Shown here: piece by piece, positions 25,628 through 45,332 of the stretch
How positions within the stretch are numbered: position 1 is the stretch's first letter
How the letters are laid out: each line of letters opens with the position of its first letter
Assembly (NCBI GenBank): GCA_000004695.1
Contig: CM000153.2
Coordinates: forward strand, 4,448,001-4,512,000
Direction of reading: 5' to 3'
Length of the DNA stretch: 64,000 bases
Source of the DNA: Dictyostelium discoideum
Lineage: Eukaryota
Notes under the pieces: generated by a model
What the model saw: only the letters and a program-made list of their open reading frames with translations
Database searches by the model: none
Told to the model about the DNA's origin: nothing
Translations under genes and position numbers: made by a program

Positions 25628-26491
25628 TTATAATCTTGAATGTGATCTTTTAATTGTACCTTCGATTAAACCTGATGGTTCTTCAACTGGTTGGAAAACA
25701 GTTTGATTATTTTCAATATTTAAACGTGAGAAATCGAAACCAAAAGCATGTTTATTTGGAAGGGAAAGGTGGACTTGTTCAACTTGTGGTACTTTGGAGA
25801 TGACATCTTTGGCAATGAGGAAGAGGGTCTCTTGAACGGAACGAGAGTAAGTTTGAGCAAAGATATCGAATACAGAGAGTTTGAATTGTTCAAATACTTT
25901 TGAATAATCTACAGACAATGTATTGTAAGTCCAATTTGCAGTAACTACAGTTGCAAAGACTCTATCTTTGGTCTCTTTCAATGAGGTGTATTTGTCACGG
26001 TGGAAACCTTCGAATCCGCTTTGAGTGGTTTTCATAATCAAAAGATCGTCAATACCAGAGACAACCACTGGTGATTTGTCACGAGATGATGTCACTGTAA
26101 CCGAATGGATCTCTCTATCACGTTGGAATGAATGAGCTTGTTCCTTGCCATTGGAGGTCTTAATACGACGCCATTGATTCTCACGCATGACAACCTCAAC
26201 TCCGTTTACCCATGAATAGGTGGCTAAAAAGTGTTTACCCAATAAAATACCATACTCTTCTAAACTCTTGAATTCTTCTTTTTGTGCAATCACATAGACT
26301 GTATTCTTCATGGTATCTGTGGCTACAACTTTACTATTGTCCCCGGTTAAATAGGTCTCTGAGAATTCGGCTCCCCTTAATAATACACGACAATCGAAAT
26401 CAAATACTTTATGATATTCATTTGGTCCTTTAAATACTCTTAATACACGAACTCTTGCTTTACCATATCTATTATCAATTAATGTTGCCAT
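25628..26491 (-). CDS. uox: Urate oxidase (uricase), 287 aa, single exon, peroxisomal (C-terminal SRL = PTS1).
   Basis: MATLIDNRYGKARVRVLRV…, the tunnel-fold uricase T-fold pattern (…YGKARVRV…, VLLRGAEF, TDTMKNTVY, …NSxVVATDTMKN…, …HVHLSLPNKH…). The sequence ends …KRSHSRL*. Confidence 0.9.
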   Translation of the reverse strand: MATLIDNRYGKARVRVLRVFKGPNEYHKVFDFDCRVLLRGAEFSETYLTGDNSKVVATDTMKNTVYVIAQKEEFKSLEEYGILLGKHFLATYSWVNGVEVVMRENQWRRIKTSNGKEQAHSFQRDREIHSVTVTSSRDKSPVVVSGIDDLLIMKTTQSGFEGFHRDKYTSLKETKDRVFATVVTANWTYNTLSVDYSKVFEQFKLSVFDIFAQTYSRSVQETLFLIAKDVISKVPQVEQVHLSLPNKHAFGFDFSRLNIENNQTVFQPVEEPSGLIEGTIKRSHSRL

Positions 26492-30852: not shown

Positions 30853-30855
<3 letters not shown>

Positions 30856-31988
30856 AATTCATTTGTAATTAGAAACGGCTTTGGTTTAGTTAGAACTTTC
30901 AATACTAGATTATTCACCACTTCAAGTATTTATTAATTTTATAAAAAAAAAAAAAAAAAAAAAAAAAATAAAAAAAATAAAAAAAGCTAATTCCTATTGC
31001 TTTTGTTTCTTTTTGTAAATAAATTCTTTTTTTTTTTTTTTTTTTTTAATGTTTAGCTCAAAATTTAGAGGGTGAATTAAAGACTATTTTAGGACAAGCA
31101 AAAGTATCAAAATTACAAGAAAAATTAAAGTTGGACCCAAGAAGTAAAATCACTTTCAATGATTTTAAAGGTATTGCTAAAGAAGTTGGAATTGAAGAAA
31201 AAGAAATTAACTCTGTTTCAAATGCACTCGCTCAATCTGGTTCAATCATCTACTTACCAAATAGTTTAAATGAAAATTTGAAGACTAGTGTATTCACAAA
31301 ACCAGCTCATATTTACCAATCATTAGAACAGTAAGTATAAAAAAGGAAACCTATTTTTATTTTTGTTTTCAATGTTTTATTTTTTAAAAGTTCTTGTTGA
31401 ATTATTATAATAGATACTAGATTTTATAAAATAAATATCTAATATTTTTTTATTTTTTTTTTTTTTTTAAAATTTTTTTTTTATTTATTATTTATTTAAA
31501 TAAAAAGTATTTTAGATATTGAAAATAAAGGTGTTGGTTTAAATAAATTAATTGAATCAAAGAAATCAGAAATTAATAGTTTAAGACAAAAAATTCAACC
31601 ATTAGAAGAAAAAAAACAAGTTATTGATAGAAAAGCACATAGAAGAGCAACTGCAATTATTTGGACAGGTTTAGGTTATTGCTTTGCTCAAGCTGCTATT
31701 TTAGCTAGATTAACATGGTGGGATTTATCATGGGATATCATTGAACCAGTATCTTACTTTTTAACATTTGGTAGTGTTTTAATTGGTTACACCTATTTTA
31801 CAATGACTAAAACTGAATTCACATATGAAGCCTTAAATCATAGATTATTTTCAAAGAGACAAGATAAACTCTTTAAAAGAAATAACTTCCCAAAGGAAGA
31901 TTATGAAAATTTAGTTCAAGCAATCGATAAAAAAGAAAAAGAATTAAAAGAATTAGAACTTGCCACTAAATATGATCATACTCATTAA
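30853..31988 (+). CDS. mcu: Mitochondrial calcium uniporter pore subunit (MCU), 275 aa. Exons 30853..30925, 31057..31330, 31508..31988.
   Basis: N-terminal mitochondrial presequence MNSFVIRNGFGLVRTFNTRLFTTS. A coiled-coil region, then two TM helices flanking …ILARLTWWDLSWDIIEPVSYFLTFGSVLIGYTYF… (MCU selectivity-filter loop, D-x-x-E = DIIE). A C-terminal coiled coil. Donors are GTATTT/GTAAGT and acceptors (T)nAG, with consistent phases. Confidence 0.88.
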
Positions 31989-32268
31989 TATTCATACATA
32001 TTCTCTTTTTTTTTTTTTAAAAAATAAAATAAAATAAGAAAGTAATGATAAAATAAAACAACAATAAATAAAAATTAATAAATAAAATAAAACCAGTTTT
32101 TTTTTTTTTTTTTTTTTATAATACTAATAATACAACATCAACAAGAATAATCTGATAAATAATATCAATATTATACTTTAAAGTTTATTGTGTTTGATTT
32201 AGAAAAAAAAAAAAAAAAAAAATAAATTTTAAATTGTAAAATTAGCAGAGTTTATTTGTAGTATTAAT

Positions 32269-34353
32269 TCAATTGTTAACAATGAATTCATTATAAGCTA
32301 TAATTTCAAAAGTTCTTGGACCTTGTGGTAAATAAGGGAATGTAATATTGAACCCTTTTGGAATTGGACCAGTTGCAGTTAAACTCTTTTTGATTTGAAA
32401 TTGTTCATTAATAGTTATAATTGATTTTGCCCAATTCTTTGGATTGTCTAATGTGAATGATGATGTAAAGAAACCAAGATTGTTACCATTTAAAAACAAT
32501 GATTTGGTAACATTGTCATAGGATAAATTAAATTCAAGGTTTGTACAATTTTGTAAATTATTAATATCTAAATTTGTAAATTTATTTCCACTAAAGATAG
32601 CACTAGTCGATGGTTGCAAATAATTACAAACAACACATGATGGTGCTTGACCACCAATTAAATTATTACTAATGTCAAAATCAATTGAACACCAAGTTTC
32701 ATCGATTTGTCCAGTTAATAAATTATCACTAAGATATAAAGAAATATCTTTTGAAAATAAATTTGATGGGAAACTTGTTGGAATAATACCACCCATTTTG
32801 TTATTTCTTAAATAAAGGATACTTAGTTTTTTATTGAATAAATTGAAATTTATTTCATTAAAGTTACCATTTTCAAACTTGCTATAATTGGGTTTTTTTT
32901 TTTTTTGATATAAAAAAAAAAAGATATTAAAAAATGTCCACTGAAATTGAATTTTTAAAGGTTAAATACTTACAAAAAGGTTAATGTTGATGGTAAAGCA
33001 GAGAATGGGAATTCACCATTTACATTGAAAATATTTCCTGCATTTGGAATATATCTTTTTTTTTTTTTTTTTCCAAAAGTTATTAATTAGTAAAAAATTA
33101 TCTGGATCGAAAGTAATGATCGAGGACTACTTACATAGAAACATCTAAACTTTCATTATAGTTGGATAAATCAATAAGGCCAAGTGGAGTGTCAATTTGG
33201 TAATTAATAGCACTATTTTTATAATTAAATTAAATTAGAATAAAGATAAGTATCAATATTATAATTTTTTAAAAAACTTACAAGCCAGTGTTTTTATTAG
33301 TACTAATTGGAATTGAAGCCAATGCCACTGGGAATGGGTAAACAACAGAATTTGATGATGTTAAAGAGAATGAAGTTACATTTGCATATGTTGAAAAAGC
33401 AGAGAATGAGTTTGAATCTGTGCCCGGTAAAAGGGTAAGTTGTCTATTGTTTTTATTATAAATAATTAGTAAATATTAATTATTGTATTGTATAAAAAAA
33501 CAAAAAAAAAAAAGAAAAACATACAATAATTCCATTAGAATATTATTCATTGATGGGATGAAATGGGTGTATGCAAAGAAGTATTCAAATGATGTCGACG
33601 TTTCAAGTAAATCATTGATATAATTGATTTTATATTTTGGATTTAAAGTTTGGGTGATGAGAGAAAACTTTTTAACATTTAAAAGACTTGAGAAATAAAT
33701 GTTTAATGGGCCAGAAAGATAAACCTTTGTACTTAAAACTGGAATTGTAATTGATTTCCCAACACCAATATCAACATCAAATATCGAAGAATTACCATTA
33801 ATTAAAGAAATCGATTTTAATGATTGAGGGAATAATCCAATTAAAAAGTTTTTAGAAACTTTGAATCCATCGATATTTCTAAAGAGAGATTTTAAATATT
33901 AATTTTGTTAGTATATATATATATATATATATAATTTTTTTTATTCTAATTTTAATATCTTACAATGTATTAATTGATGAAAAGCATTGAAAATCAGATG
34001 GTGAAATTAAATTTTTATTTGTTTGGGTCGCTCTAATATTTACAACATTTTGTGCATCACAATTAACCAAAGCATTCATAGGAGTTAATGGTGAATTACA
34101 AAAGTCGTAAAGAAGAGTGTTTGAATTATAATAAAATTCCTGGTTGACATTAGAAATTTTATTAAAGAAATTGAAAGTACATTGATCTGTAAAATTTAAA
34201 TTTAAGAATAAAAATTAGATAAAAAAAAAAAAAAAAAAAATTAAAATAAAATAAAATTAAATACTTACATTCTGATGAAGAAAGGGAAAATACATCCCCA
34301 ATAAAAAATAACAGAACTGACAAAACAATAGAGAAAAGTTTGACTAAATTCAT
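32269..34353 (-). CDS. Family member B of the LRR receptor-like family: an intact 531-codon ORF encoding signal peptide plus LRRs only (no EGF/TM part). Exons on the minus strand: 34269..34353, 33964..34186, 33525..33878, 33282..33443, 33135..33212, 32974..33054, 32269..32881.
   Basis: MNLVKLFSIVLSVLLFFIGDVFSLSSSE|YQCTFNFFNKISNVNQ…QCFSSINTL|LNIDGFKVSKNFLIGLFPQSLKSISLINGNSSIFDV…|LQLTLLPGTDSNSF…|FAINYQIDTPLGLIDLSNYNESLDVSM|IYIPNAGNIFNVNGEFPFSALPSTLTFL|FKFENGNFNEINF…LTGQIDETWCSIDFDISNNLIGGQAPSCVVCNY…GPIPKGFNITFPYLPQGPRTFEIIAYNEFIVNN*. Exon sizes and phases (85/223/354/162/78/81) parallel the full-length paralogs. The ORF stops exactly where the paralogs continue …ITAYNEFIPQIDSVIRY…. Confidence 0.65.
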
Positions 34354-34556: not shown

Positions 34557-37205
34557 TTATTGATGTGATTTCTTTTGAAATACTTTAAAATTAAATACGA
34601 AAATAAGCATTAATATTATAATTGGGATTATTATTACTAAAATTATGGAGAAATGGTTTGTTACTGCTACTAAATTGATAGATATCACTCCCACCATTTT
34701 TACTTGAATCACTATTATTACTTTCATTACTACTATCACTACTATTATTACTATTACTATTACTATTACTATCTATTACTATTACTATTGCTATTACTAC
34801 TACTATTACTACTATTACTACTATTACTACAAATTTTATTTTGATTATACAAAGGATAATAATTACCCTCCATTTATGATTGTTTTGGATTACTAACAAT
34901 ATAGTGTTATTATTATTAATTGTACATATTATATCTGATGGTGGATAGCATTTAATTTCAAGTTGAGTATTTGAAATGATATCGCATGGTTTATTATTGA
35001 TGGTTACTGATAAATCTATAAATATTACCGAACCAACCATTTAATATTATAGAATACCAAGTTCAGTTTGTTGTAGTTGTTGTGAATTAACTTGATGATT
35101 TGGTGTTAAACACATTGAATCAATCCATTGATTTGTACAATTACACTGACCATTGATTTGATTACAAATACCTTGATTACATCCTAATCCATTATTACAT
35201 TCACATACACCATTTATATAATTACAGAAACTACCATTTTCATCATTACAATCTGATGAACATTTCAATGATCTTAATTCACATTGATAACCTCTCCATT
35301 CATTTGAAAAACAATCACAAACACCCTTCACATAACTATATTCACCACTATTTTTAGCACAATTTGGAATTGGACAATTACTACCATTACAAATTTGATT
35401 CAATTTGAAATTAAAACTATTCGATACATTCATAACTTGAACTAAACAATTAATTTCTTTATTATTATTTACAATACCACCACTATTACTACCTACTTGT
35501 ATCACTGTTACCTTATTATTGATGATTTTATTTGAATTATAAAGATAACATTGAATTTGATTGAAATTACTTGATAATACTAAACAAGGTTCGTTTGAGA
35601 TTAAAACATTGATAACCGTATTATTATATGCAAAGTTTTTACCATTGATAATGAAATAATCTGAATATCTAATAACTGAATCAATTTGTGGTATGAATTC
35701 ATTATAAGCTGTAATTTCAAAAGTTCTTGGACCTTGAGGTAAATATGGAAATGTAATATTGAATCCTTTTGGCATTGGTTGAGTTGAAAAGATATTATTT
35801 TTCAATTGGAATGCTCTATTTGGTGTTATAATAGCAGTTGCAAAATTTTTATCAAACAATGCATGATTGGCGATTTACCACTTATTAAATTATTTCTAAT
35901 GTTACTAACATCAAAATTAACTTCACACCACTATCATCCATTTCTCCAGTAATTTCATTATTATATAAATAATATTCACTATGGGAAATTTAACTTGGTA
36001 ATGGAGTTTTAATACTATTGTTTTGAAATTTTATATATTTAATATTTGTCAATTTTTCATTAATATTTTTAAATTTACCTAAATTTCCATTCTTAAATTC
36101 ACTCTATAAAAAAGATTTAATCATTAATAACTTTTAAATGATTTTAATACTTTTACAATTGGTTGAATATATTTACAGTAAAAACAAATTTTTTGGTAAT
36201 CCAGAAAATGGAAAATCACCATCAATATTGAATAATTTACCTGAACTATTAAATTAATAGAAAAAAAGTTATAAAAGGAGTTAATAAATATCTTGTTTCA
36301 TTTGGGGTAGGATCTCATTCAATACTTTAAATAACCTTTTAATTTAACCAAAACTTACATTGATACCTCATTTTCATAATTATTTGATAAATTAATAAAG
36401 GTAGGAGGCGTATCTATTTGATAAGTAATTGTACTTAATATATTGTTTTTTTTTTAAAAAAAGTTAAAATAATTGTAATAATAATAAAAAATAATGGAGA
36501 AAATAAATAAAAAATATTTACAGACCAGTATTTTTATTTCAGCTGGTATTTCACTTAAAGCAATAGGGAAGGGATATATTTGAGTTTTGTCTGAAGGTGT
36601 TATTGAAAATGCAATTACATTTGAAAATTTTGAAAAAATTGAAAATGAATATATATCAGCTCCACCTAAAAGTGTGAGTTGACTTTTTTTTATTAAAAAA
36701 TGTTTTTTTTTTAAATAATTATTAATATTTATAACATTGGGTAAAAAAAAAAAAAAAAAAAAAAATATATATATAAAAAATAATAAAAAAAAAAAAAATT
36801 TGTAAATACAAACAAAATAGATAAATTAATGTTTTTCACTGATGGTATATTATGAGAATATATGTTATAAATATTGAAAATGGCAGTCGTGGTATCATTC
36901 AAGTCATTTATAAAATTTATTTTATATTTTGGTTTTTGAGTTTGGTTTTTCAACTGAAATTTTTGAACATTTAAAAAACTTGAGAAATATATATTTAGTG
37001 GTCCAGAAAGGTACAATAATAAACTTAATGATTCTACTTGTATAATTTTATTGAACCCAATTTCCACATCAAATAATGATGAATTACCAATAAATAATGA
37101 CATACATGTTAAAGTATTTGGAAATTTTCCTATTAAAAAATTATTTTCAACTTTAAATAAATCTATATTACTGATTTATATTATTTACATATTAGATTTA
37201 TGTAT

Positions 37206-37241
<36 letters not shown>

Positions 37242-38110
37242 TTTTTTTTTTTTTTCAAAAACACTTACATAGAATTTAATGATGAAAAACATTGAAAATC
37301 AATTGGAGATGAACCATTCTAATACCTTCAACAGCTGTTGAACATTATCACAATAATTTATATAAATGATTTATTAGTTAAATAAAATTAGTTAAAAATA
37401 CTCGCCTAAATTATTGCTCATGTTTTATCAGAATCTTGTAATAGAAAAATAAAATAAAATTAAATAAATAAATATATATAAATAAAAATAAAGTAATAAG
37501 TTGATGTTATCGACAATATCTAAAATTTATTATACATGTTTTTTTATTATTGAAAATTTTTACTTATTATATTTGAGATTTAAAATTATGTTTATGAGTT
37601 TTTCAATCGACATTAAAAACTCACCACGTGACTTTTTCCCACCTAGGTGAGAAAAGTCTAATTATATAAACATAAATTATTTTAGTTTGTGAGCGAGATT
37701 GTATCTAATTTAAAATCTTGATAAAACATAATTTTATTGTAACAATTTAATTATTACATAATTATATTACAACAAACAGCTCCCTTGTTATTACATATGA
37801 AATGGTTATATGGATCAAGTGCTACAGCACTACAAAAACTATATCCATTGAATGTTGTATCCAATGGGTGCTCTTTAGAAGCCTGATTAATTTTATTAAA
37901 TAAATGTAATGTACAATTATCTTTTTACAAATGAAAAGGATTGTTGAGATTATTAATTTTCTACTCAAAAAAAAAAAAAAAAAAAAAAAAATTAATTACA
38001 AACTTACACTCTGATTCAATGAGTTGATTTTGTGAATTAACTAAATTTTTATTTTGACATATTATAAATAAAAGTAAAAGAATAATACTATTTAAAACTC
38101 CCATGTTCAT
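34557..38110 (-). pseudogene. Decayed paralog of the LRR/EGF/TM family (closest to the copy at 39639..43127). Its 3' exon is frameshifted and its LRR exons are degenerate.
   Basis: An exon-1-like start MNMGVLNSIILLLLFIICQNKNLVNSQNQLIESE|GTAAGT lies at 38110..38026. The 3'-exon homologue 35047..35859 matches 40200..41010 nearly base-for-base, but a 1-bp deletion at ~35040-35047 (…gaacttggtattctaTAAtattaaatgg… versus …ctattaatattaaatgg…) creates a stop (QTELGIL*). The LRR portion around 35860-35960 reads …EMDDSGVKLILMLVTLEII** with multiple frameshifts relative to …EMDDSWCSITFDISNNLIGG…. Confidence 0.75.
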
Positions 38111-39638: not shown

Positions 39639-43127
<3,489 letters not shown>

Positions 43128-43400: not shown

Positions 43401-45332
43401 TTAAAATTTAATATCTGTTTCTTCCAACTCTGTGAAATTTTTTTTATCTTTAAATATTTTTCTAGTTATTACTTTGCATTGATTACTTTTAATAACCAAA
43501 ACTAAAAGGATTATTAAAATTACAGATGGAATTAAAATTGATATTATAACTAAAATATTTTTTCTGGAAAATTTTGGATTTTGAGCATCCTCCTTATTTT
43601 CACCATTAATATCATTGCCACTACTATTACTACTATTACTACTACTACTACTACTACCATTATTAATACACACGCTAATACCATCTAAAGGTGTTGGGTT
43701 ATAAAATCCACTCCAATGAACATTGTTTTGAACAACTGATAATTCCAGATTATTATTATTATATTGGTAACAATAGATGTCTGATGGATAACATTCGACC
43801 ATATAGTCAGAATCTGCAACAATGTCACATTCTATTTGATTTACTTTAATAGTTAGATCATTTCGAAAAATTTCACTACCAAACCAACCATTTAATATTA
43901 ATAGATTACCAAGAGCACCTCGTTTAATTTCTTGTGAGGTAACCATAGTATTAGGTATATTACAATTTGAAGCAGTCCATTGAATAGTACAATTACATTG
44001 ACCAAATAAATAATCACAAATTCCACCATTACTACAACCTAATCCTTCATTACATAGTCTACCACTACAATCATCGAATATTCTATTTTCATTACATTCG
44101 CATTTACCATTAATATTATTACAAATACCACCACCATCATTATTACTACAATCTGATGAGCATTTCAATGGTTTTTGTTCACATTGATAACCTCTCCATT
44201 TATTGGAAAAACAATCACAGACTCCACTCTCTTTATTATATACACCTCCATTTTTTATATTACATACCGGAATTGGACAATTAATACCATTACAAATTTG
44301 ATTCAATTTGAAATTAAAACTATTCGATACATTCATAACTTGAACTAAACAATTAATTTCAATACTACTACTACTACTGCTGCTATCACTGTTACTATTA
44401 TTATTGATGATTTTATTTGAATTATAAAGATAACATTGAATTTGATTGAAATTACTTGATAATACTAAACAAAGTTCGTTTGAGATTAAAACATTGATAA
44501 CCGTATTATTATATGCAAAGTATTTACCATTGATAATGAAATAATCTGAATATCTAATAACTGAATCAATTTGTGGTATGAATTCATTATAAGCTGTAAT
44601 TTCAAAAGTTCTTGAACCTTGTGGTAAATATGGAAATGTAATATTGAATCCTTTTGGCATTGGACCAGTTACTCTATTATTCTTTGTAATTTCAAATAAT
44701 GTATTTTCAATTTTAATATTTTCTGCCCAAATATTTGGATTATCTAATTTGAATGATATACCAAAACCAAGATCTCTACCATATAGCATCAATGATTTAG
44801 TTTGATTATCATATGATAGATTTAGTTCAATAGTAGTACAATCTTCTAAATGGTTAATATCTAAATTTGTGAATCTATTACCATTAACAATTGCACTAGT
44901 AATTGGATTAAGGTAATGACAAACTACACATGATGGTGCTTTACCACCAATTAAATTATTACTAATATCGAAAGTTATTGAACACCAACTATCATCCATT
45001 TCACCTGTTAATTTATTATCATTTAAATATAACTCAAGTAAAACATCCATTGATTTAATAAAAGATGATGTTGGTAATTTACTGGTTAAACCATTAAATG
45101 ATAAATCTATTATATTTGTTTTCTCTTTGAAAATATTAAAATTGATTACACTTATATTTCCATTTTTCAATTGACTTTTGAAAAAAAAAAAATTAGTATA
45201 CTATTATTATATTTATCTTGTGTTTTAATTATTATTATTTTAAAATAGTTACAATGTATTTAAATTTGGTGGTAACACTGAAAATGGAAAGTTACCATTA
45301 ATATTGAATAAATTACCTGCCTTTGCAATATA

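Follow-up and report, generated by a model that had tools for sequence, protein, structure and literature searches.

The locus described here raises the question of whether a receptor-like gene that ends before its membrane anchor is a working gene or a dead fragment. It lies in a 64,000-nucleotide (nt) stretch of the Dictyostelium discoideum genome (GenBank assembly GCA_000004695.1, contig CM000153.2, positions 4,448,001 to 4,512,000 of the forward strand; hereafter the window, numbered from its first letter), which has ca. 22% G+C and is 100% identical over 4.6 kb to D. discoideum strain ACTFIT. The minus-strand element at 34353..32269 is, in strain AX4, DDB_G0286431 (Q54LS9), the final member of a tandem array of ComC-like genes encoding leucine-rich repeats (LRR), TIG and EGF domains and a transmembrane (TM) helix. 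It is already annotated as a hypothetical protein, and no description of its nature or history was found in the searched literature. We consider, with a probability of roughly 0.6, that DDB_G0286431 is a functional gene for a soluble, secreted ComC-family fragment that was truncated in two steps under selection and that would act as an LRR-based binder outside the cell. Rather than being a dead fragment, the gene probably encodes a protein that works and is secreted.

Splicing of the minus strand reproduced what had been noticed from the letters alone, i.e., six 5' exons and 203 codons of a last exon that together form an intact 531-codon open reading frame (ORF), and this observation is thereby confirmed. 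The spliced model of the whole coding region (32269..34353, -) has seven exons and six introns (donors GTAAG in five and GTATG in one, acceptors all AG), amounts to 1596 nt (531 codons and a TGA) and ends in FEIIAYNEFIVNN before the stop; the C-terminal peptide of the 531-residue Q54LS9 model reads ...EIIAYNEFIVNN, and the protein matches that of AX4 exactly apart from the choice of exons. Exon 1 (34269..34353, 85 nt) encodes the signal peptide MNLVKLFSIVLSVLLFFIGDVFS (residues 1 to ~23, from Kyte-Doolittle hydropathy), and exon 2 (33964..34186, 223 nt) an N-terminal cysteine cap (C31/C58/C71/C96) and, at residue 93, the start of the LRR_ComC domain. The LRR solenoid continues through exon 3 (33525..33878, 354 nt), exon 4 (33282..33443, 162 nt), exon 5 (33135..33212, 78 nt) and exon 6 (32974..33054, 81 nt), and exon 7 (32269..32881, 613 nt, i.e., one nucleotide finishing a split codon, 203 codons and the stop) carries the last LRRs, a second cysteine cap (C392/C410/C413/C440), a beta-sandwich at residues ~440-525 and the TGA itself (32269..32271, placed by alignment to the D. 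citrinum ortholog). All of these lie on the minus strand.

The public AX4 model (P0004, 472 aa) uses other splice sites in the region 32974-33282 and leaves out 59 residues (STNKNTGFAINYQ...IPNAG and KFENGNFNEINFNLFNKKLS), with exon 5 missing and exon 6 partly missing. These residues are retained in independently annotated orthologs and fall within the high-confidence part of the fold; the counterpart of exon 5, kept in the ortholog gene models, has a block-mean predicted local distance difference test score (pLDDT) of 95-97 in an ortholog structure model. The seven-exon structure is also matched by independent annotation in four orthologs (P0001, P0002, P0005, and P0006), and the 531-codon model looks correct over the public one. 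The NCBI models of ACTFIT (1210 aa; locus L006 1-4279) and ACTFIR (1250 aa; P0074) run the truncated gene together with the paralog or pseudogene upstream of it, and these fused products are very likely an annotation artefact. Both the 472-aa AX4 model and the fused strain annotations should be corrected. In strain FIY the annotation missed the true first exon and joined the gene to an upstream EGF remnant; FIZ and FIY both have GCAAGT for GTAAGT as the donor of the first intron, i.e., a GC-AG intron (L004 ~10083, L005 ~10650), and in the D. citrinum ortholog intron 6 has ~450 nt (L001 11504-11953), as against ~90 nt in every other ortholog.

The encoded protein is homologous over its full length to the ComC-like family (PF24141, PF24143). 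It matches the Pfam family LRR_ComC (PF24141) at 45.2 bits (E = 1.3e-11; gathering score 27) over residues 93-402 (genomic span with introns 32659..33995, -), an alignment that takes in positions 1-287 of the 288-position profile. Eight cysteines are arranged in the two sets of four named above, and in an alignment of 37 family sequences six of them (C58, C71, C392, C410, C413, and C440) show a conservation of at least 90%; the protein also has seven N-glycosylation sequons. Its structure was modelled with AlphaFold2 on the 92%-identical ortholog P0001, which stands in for the AX4 protein. The model (pLDDT 92.3, predicted template modelling score 0.86) consists of an LRR solenoid and, C-terminal to it, a beta-sandwich of six strands spanning residues 444-522 (strands 444-450, 455-461, 478-484, 488-493, 504-509, and 517-522), and the P0001 protein stops three residues past the final strand. 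The description of this copy as "LRR-only" was thus inexact, given that ca. 85 C-terminal residues form a beta-sandwich domain in the model. Foldseek placed it nearest to BRI1, MIK2, internalin A, TLRs, and PGIP, i.e., generic LRR ectodomains with template modelling scores (TM-scores) of 0.2-0.3.

Hydropathy (Kyte-Doolittle, 19-residue windows) reaches its maximum of 2.39 at residues 6-24, with the hydrophobic core of the signal peptide within residues 3-24, and no TM segment, glycosylphosphatidylinositol (GPI)-type tail or endoplasmic reticulum (ER)-retention motif was found, the maximum outside the signal peptide being 1.1 as against 3.4 for the TM segment of a paralog. Pfam searches of the 531-residue AX4 protein gave no EGF match and no second beta-sandwich or IPT-TIG domain, and the single C-terminal TM helix and cytoplasmic tail of the full ComC-like architecture are likewise not present in this product. 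As modelled, it is a signal peptide, a disulfide-capped LRR solenoid and the first beta-sandwich, with no anchor. From the signal peptide together with the lack of a TM segment, GPI-type tail or ER-retention motif we infer that it is secreted, and the proposal that a soluble ectodomain is the natural product therefore holds at the level of prediction. DDB_G0286431 thus has the ectodomain module of the receptors and lacks their anchor and signalling parts, the feature by which decoy or accessory proteins are classed.

The original prediction had put the stop exactly where full-length paralogs proceed into their TIG, EGF and TM parts, and this proved accurate: all tblastn alignments of the paralogs in the window end at residue 528, and the last exons of three full-length paralogs (pB, pC, and pD) run on through EFI/PQIDSV... 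into the TIG domain, teneurin-type EGF repeats and a TM helix. The broken last exon of a fourth paralog, pA, also continues through EFI/PQIDSV..., up to the EGF region. Since the Pfam domain PF24143 (Beta-sand_ComC_2nd) of the paralogs starts at the P of PQIDSV, immediately after AYNEFI, the truncation falls at a clean domain boundary.

Protein searches recovered the same short gene in strains of the D. discoideum complex (P0001, 525 aa; P0002, 524 aa; and P0003) and longer orthologs in D. citrinum (605 aa, also in a second strain) and D. dimigraforme (608 aa). Identity to the AX4 protein is 80% for D. citrinum and 71% for D. dimigraforme, while full-length family members reached 43-56% in the same search. 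Syntenic orthologs are intact without exception in D. citrinum, D. dimigraforme, and four strains of the D. discoideum complex other than AX4. Loci were compared in detail between AX4 and five genomes fetched from these three species, i.e., six in all; ACTFIT is identical to AX4 at this gene and is not independent. The locus order (array end, MCU tail-to-tail, a kinase gene, and uricase) is the same in the window and in every one of the five fetched genomes. The seven-exon ORF is intact throughout the six, with the same exon sizes and with conserved intron positions and splice sites, and no orthologous truncated copy of any species has EGF repeats.

Selection on this gene was estimated as the ratio of nonsynonymous to synonymous substitution rates (dN/dS, or omega) by the method of Nei and Gojobori (NG86), with bootstrap limits, over 523-603 aligned codons and all 15 pairs. 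Each of the 15 gave a dN/dS between 0.26 and 0.47, with upper bootstrap limits of at most 0.76, and the low values hold also for pairs within the D. discoideum complex that split after the final truncation. Synonymous divergence (dS) reaches 0.54 among the six genomes. Given that it agrees with that of the adjacent single-copy uricase gene (0.079 for both between AX4 and FIW) and with the introns of DDB_G0286431 itself, the strains are truly diverged and dS is not inflated. Uricase has an omega of 0.02-0.11. In the part that they have in common with the truncated gene, the paralogs pB and pA have 0.2-0.65, so that the truncated gene is under no weaker constraint than its anchored relatives. 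No local peak hinting at positive selection was seen, the highest 40-codon window being 0.60. The pattern of insertions and deletions (indels) is of the same kind: the exons (1566 columns) hold three indels, each of 3 nt and none breaking the frame, and the introns (957 columns) hold 56 of all lengths. In a neighbour-joining tree of the shared last-exon region, the truncated copies form one clade with the order (D. dimigraforme, (D. citrinum, D. discoideum complex)), whose sister is the group of pC (DDB_G0286437) and pD.

These results bear on two ways in which the gene could be without function. A dead fragment, whose reading frame is open by chance or whose truncation is recent and which yields no useful product, was one outcome named in the original prediction, to be judged by a dN/dS test for purifying selection. 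Its C-terminus has indeed been lost twice, the protein evidence described below is minimal, and the neighbouring pA is a pseudogene in AX4, so the array does shed members. However, neither neutral evolution nor frame-breaking changes in relatives, the marks of a pseudogene, were found: all six genomes retain the seven-exon frame at a dS of up to 0.54, no disabling change occurs in any of them, splice sites are conserved, exon indels are few and in frame where introns have 56, and purifying selection is seen with every upper limit below 0.77, including the pairs that postdate the second truncation. The gene is also listed in a differential-expression set (PMC4403905, one supplementary sheet). 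The low dN/dS and the intact frames lead us to reject the dead-fragment reading, which we regard as very improbable. Alternatively, the low dN/dS could be borrowed, with repeated gene conversion from full-length paralogs overwriting a non-functional copy. Two traits of the 3' end speak for such exchange, namely an 18-nt patch in AX4 that matches paralog sequence and the near identity of the final ~30 codons across all paralogs. Had conversion maintained the gene, the truncated copies should group with paralogs of their own genomes; instead, those of the six genomes cluster together in a species-like topology, are closer to the AX4 protein than full-length members are (the 80% and 71% against 43-56% given above), and have a dS equal to that of the neighbouring uricase. 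The monophyly and species-like order of the truncated copies mean that gene conversion does not explain the constraint, and we find this account scarcely credible.

The history of the truncation can be read by comparison with the longer orthologs. Those of D. citrinum and D. dimigraforme read past the AX4 stop for ~75-80 more codons, through the TIG/second beta-sandwich, and end in VSNTYHF and VSSTFDFSFY, respectively, where the EGF region of the paralogs begins; compared between these two species, their TIG segment is strongly constrained, with an omega of 0.14 (confidence interval 0.06-0.29). In the D. discoideum complex, a 1-nt insertion of T turns AAC GAA into AAT TGA and is followed by gaps of 15 nt and ~210 nt. 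The stop is common to all strains of the complex (the same TGA in FIW and FIZ, a TAA at the same codon in FIY). Remains of the start of the TIG domain, GAATTAATACTACAAAT and AAACTCTGCTAATTTTACAATT, can be aligned in the 3' untranslated region (3'UTR; 32232..32270, -) with the D. citrinum counterparts GAATTCATACCACAAAT ... AAACTCTGGTGATTTTACAATT; the second of these relics has a local alignment score of 18 against 9.7 +/- 1.2 for shuffled sequence, a value reached in 0 of 1000 shuffles, and FIZ retains slightly more of the domain. The 1-nt insertion, the deletions and the TIG relics identify the stop at 32269 as a frameshift stop, not a duplication boundary as had been suggested. Nor is the downstream sequence wholly unrelated to the paralogs, as had been thought, the exception being the TIG remains at 32232-32270. 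The earlier interpretation of this copy is thus partly supported, the predicted soluble product standing and the proposed origin of its end falling.

The AX4 end has one further peculiarity. An 18-nt insert (32279..32296, -; TTATAATGAATTCATTGT), which adds the residues YNEFIV, occurs only in AX4 and the identical ACTFIT, and is absent from FIW, FIR, FIZ, and FIY, whose proteins end in FEITANN. Of its bases, 17 (GCTTATAATGAATTCAT) are identical to the AX4 paralogs pA, pC, and pD. Because AX4 is nested among strains that do not have the insert, we read it as a gain in the AX4 lineage, the simplest explanation of these alignments being a short patch copied from a paralog. A tandem duplication was rejected as its origin, as at several positions the insert has a pre-frameshift, paralog-like state no longer present in the decayed copy beside it. 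All three species lack the EGF and TM parts through an older, shared loss. A search of the 3'UTRs of the D. citrinum and D. dimigraforme orthologs found no EGF or TM relics (alignment scores equalled those of shuffled controls), and the mechanism of this older truncation is therefore not recoverable.

We propose the following sequence of events. In the common ancestor of D. dimigraforme, D. citrinum, and D. discoideum, the array member next to MCU would have lost its EGF and TM parts, leaving the LRR and two beta-sandwiches. Along the branch to D. discoideum, the linker between the domains would then have gained one nucleotide that created the TGA, and the TIG domain, no longer translated, would have been mostly deleted. 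AX4 would later have acquired the 18 nt (six codons) matching a paralog. Purifying selection would have acted without interruption and as strongly as on the membrane-anchored paralogs. The protein would enter the secretory pathway, be released and act extracellularly through its LRR surface, which may bind a partner shared with the membrane-bound relatives, as competitor or helper, or may bind those relatives themselves. A decoy or co-factor role is no more than what we infer from this arrangement.

Is the gene used? Additional file 7 of Rosengarten 2015 (PMC4403905), in its text rendering, has DDB_G0286431 among the differentially expressed genes of the suspension_DOWN sheet, as the second field of a row; the header gives that column as DOWN_Hr00_rapid, an assignment made from the position of the entry in that rendering. 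Such an entry implies that the transcript, there at 0 h, declines rapidly once cells are starved in cAMP-pulsed suspension, and we take this gene-list entry as moderate evidence of transcription in growing cells. The paralog DDB_G0286437 stands in the suspension_UP sheet of the same file, for starved cAMP-pulsed cells. At the protein level, Q54LS9 has a single low abundance by mass spectrometry (177,750) in spreadsheet S1 of the life-cycle proteome PMC12821622, from only one fruiting-body replicate of the two, and no value in the rest of that sheet, which makes the protein evidence weak. Neither DDB_G0286431 nor five paralog identifiers were found in the main texts of the searched literature, and searches of the supplements of PMC4931340, PMC6889452, and PMC6830349 gave no mention of DDB_G0286431, as a secretome record or otherwise.

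Several points weigh against a functional secreted binder. Secretion itself is a prediction. Gradual decay is another way to interpret the repeated C-terminal losses. To our knowledge, no ligand is known for any member of the ComC-like family. Searches found no ortholog of the truncated gene outside D. discoideum, D. citrinum, and D. dimigraforme; moreover, NG86 is a simple estimator to apply to a genome of 22% G+C, and site tests on six sequences have little power. The RNA evidence is an entry in a gene list and not read counts (PMC4403905, the one sheet), and the single low Q54LS9 value (PMC12821622, spreadsheet S1) belongs to a stage that does not match the RNA, so that noise or shared peptides are possible.

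If the gene is functional, its product need not be free of the membrane or tied to its paralogs. One alternative is a co-receptor subunit, kept at the cell surface by pairing with an anchored paralog or another receptor. LRR ectodomains commonly dimerise, as in plant LRR receptor/co-receptor pairs and TLRs; DDB_G0286431 and its paralogs have the capped LRR and beta-sandwich module in common, and the truncated gene has been kept beside them in the array over its whole traceable history. On the other side stands the opposite regulation of DDB_G0286437 (listed up in starved cAMP-pulsed cells) and DDB_G0286431 (listed down at the onset of starvation), as far as those sheets go, which makes a mild argument against a fixed partnership with that paralog, and we hold the co-receptor unlikely. 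A secreted protein acting independently of the paralogs, e.g., a growth-phase factor that binds bacteria or some environmental target through its LRR surface, would suit a gene listed in the sheet as expressed at 0 h and rapidly lost on starvation, and the solved folds closest to the model are LRR ectodomains that bind ligands or pathogens. Those fold matches are generic, though, at TM-scores of 0.2-0.3, and no window has the raised dN/dS often seen at host-microbe interfaces; this alternative strikes us as quite improbable. We continue to favor the soluble, secreted ComC-family binder. It is conceivable, if tentative, that such an ectodomain-only gene tunes signalling by ComC-like receptors or senses bacteria, being on during feeding and off at the onset of multicellularity, and that it evolved independently of comparable animal and plant systems.

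By descent, DDB_G0286431 is a member of the ComC-like LRR family, and the other systems considered below are analogies, not memberships. ComC is a developmental signalling protein with a signal peptide and a TM segment, restricted to group 4 dictyostelids; PMC4931340 has comC as one table entry. With this family DDB_G0286431 has in common the intron positions, the cysteine caps, the first beta-sandwich and the tandem array, and it differs in having no TIG/second beta-sandwich (in D. discoideum), EGF repeats, TM helix or cytoplasmic tail. Its closest full-length relative in AX4 is DDB_G0286437, from which it differs also in the sheets of PMC4403905, being listed as down on starvation where the relative is up.

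Functionally, it most resembles genome-encoded soluble receptor-ectodomain paralogs or secreted LRR proteins, by analogy. The soluble TLR5 of fish (TLR5S) is a separate gene for an LRR ectodomain only, with a signal peptide and no anchor, that is selected alongside its membrane-bound paralogs. The apparent likeness is an anchorless LRR ectodomain gene kept beside membrane paralogs; however, there is no sequence relation beyond the LRR fold, and ligand and pathway are known for TLR5. PGIP (1ogq), one of the Foldseek matches, is a plant-type, disulfide-capped, secreted LRR solenoid (secretion of DDB_G0286431 being predicted), but it matches weakly (TMq 0.29) and lacks a beta-sandwich at the C-terminus; its enzyme target is known, and no common descent is visible. 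The internalins of Listeria, with InlA chains among the top Foldseek matches, likewise place an Ig-like beta-sandwich after an LRR solenoid; they are bacterial virulence factors with a TM-score of ~0.28 and 13-15% identity, and the analogy is one of architecture only.

The ComC-like family comprises lineage-restricted surface proteins of a model social amoeba, and DDB_G0286431 offers a genetic entry point to whether such receptors are regulated from outside the cell. Should the tentative role in tuning or sensing be true, the genome of a social amoeba encodes a soluble decoy or co-receptor system that D. discoideum has remodelled by cleanly losing a further domain. That domains were lost stepwise while selection continued shows the LRR and first beta-sandwich to be the minimal unit that selection has kept in this lineage. 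The soluble ectodomain should express and fold without a membrane and is a possible reagent in the search for binding partners.

Upstream of the truncated gene, tblastn of its product against the window gave four further tandem copies on the same strand, at ~50.6-47.4, 46.6-43.4, 42.9-39.6, and 37.3-34.6 kb. Three are full-length, with LRR, beta-sandwich, TIG, EGF and TM parts and approximate 5' limits: pD (~47367-50578, -), pC (DDB_G0286437; ~43401-46607, -), and pB (~39639-42937, -). The nearest, pA (34591..38110, -), is a pseudogene in AX4, where its last exon lacks ~63 internal codons, changes frame and has a broken tail. An intact pA occurs in FIW, FIZ, D. citrinum, and D. dimigraforme, and FIY has lost most of the gene. 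pC and pD are a recent tandem duplicate, their last exons having 91-93% protein identity, and FIY has only one gene of the pC/pD type within the 10 kb fetched upstream, a distance that the other loci fall short of. The last exon of pB (39639-41252, -) encodes an unbroken run of ~40 asparagines and a second run of 13, both in the extracellular stalk between the last beta-sandwich and the TM segment.

Downstream, an AATAAA hexamer (32251..32256, -), read from the sequence 13-18 nt past the stop, is a candidate polyadenylation signal. The original prediction had an MCU (mitochondrial calcium uniporter) gene following, and the gene was indeed placed at 30855..31988 (+) by coordinates transferred from the ACTFIT locus and by PF04678; it is convergent, i.e., tail-to-tail with DDB_G0286431, with 280 nt between MCU and the stop of the latter. 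Farther along, uricase (25628-26491 of the window), a conserved housekeeping gene, has a dS of 0.08-0.15 between AX4 and strains labelled D. discoideum or cf. discoideum. These values are far above the within-species diversity usually reported for D. discoideum, which suggests cryptic species among the strains that carry this label.

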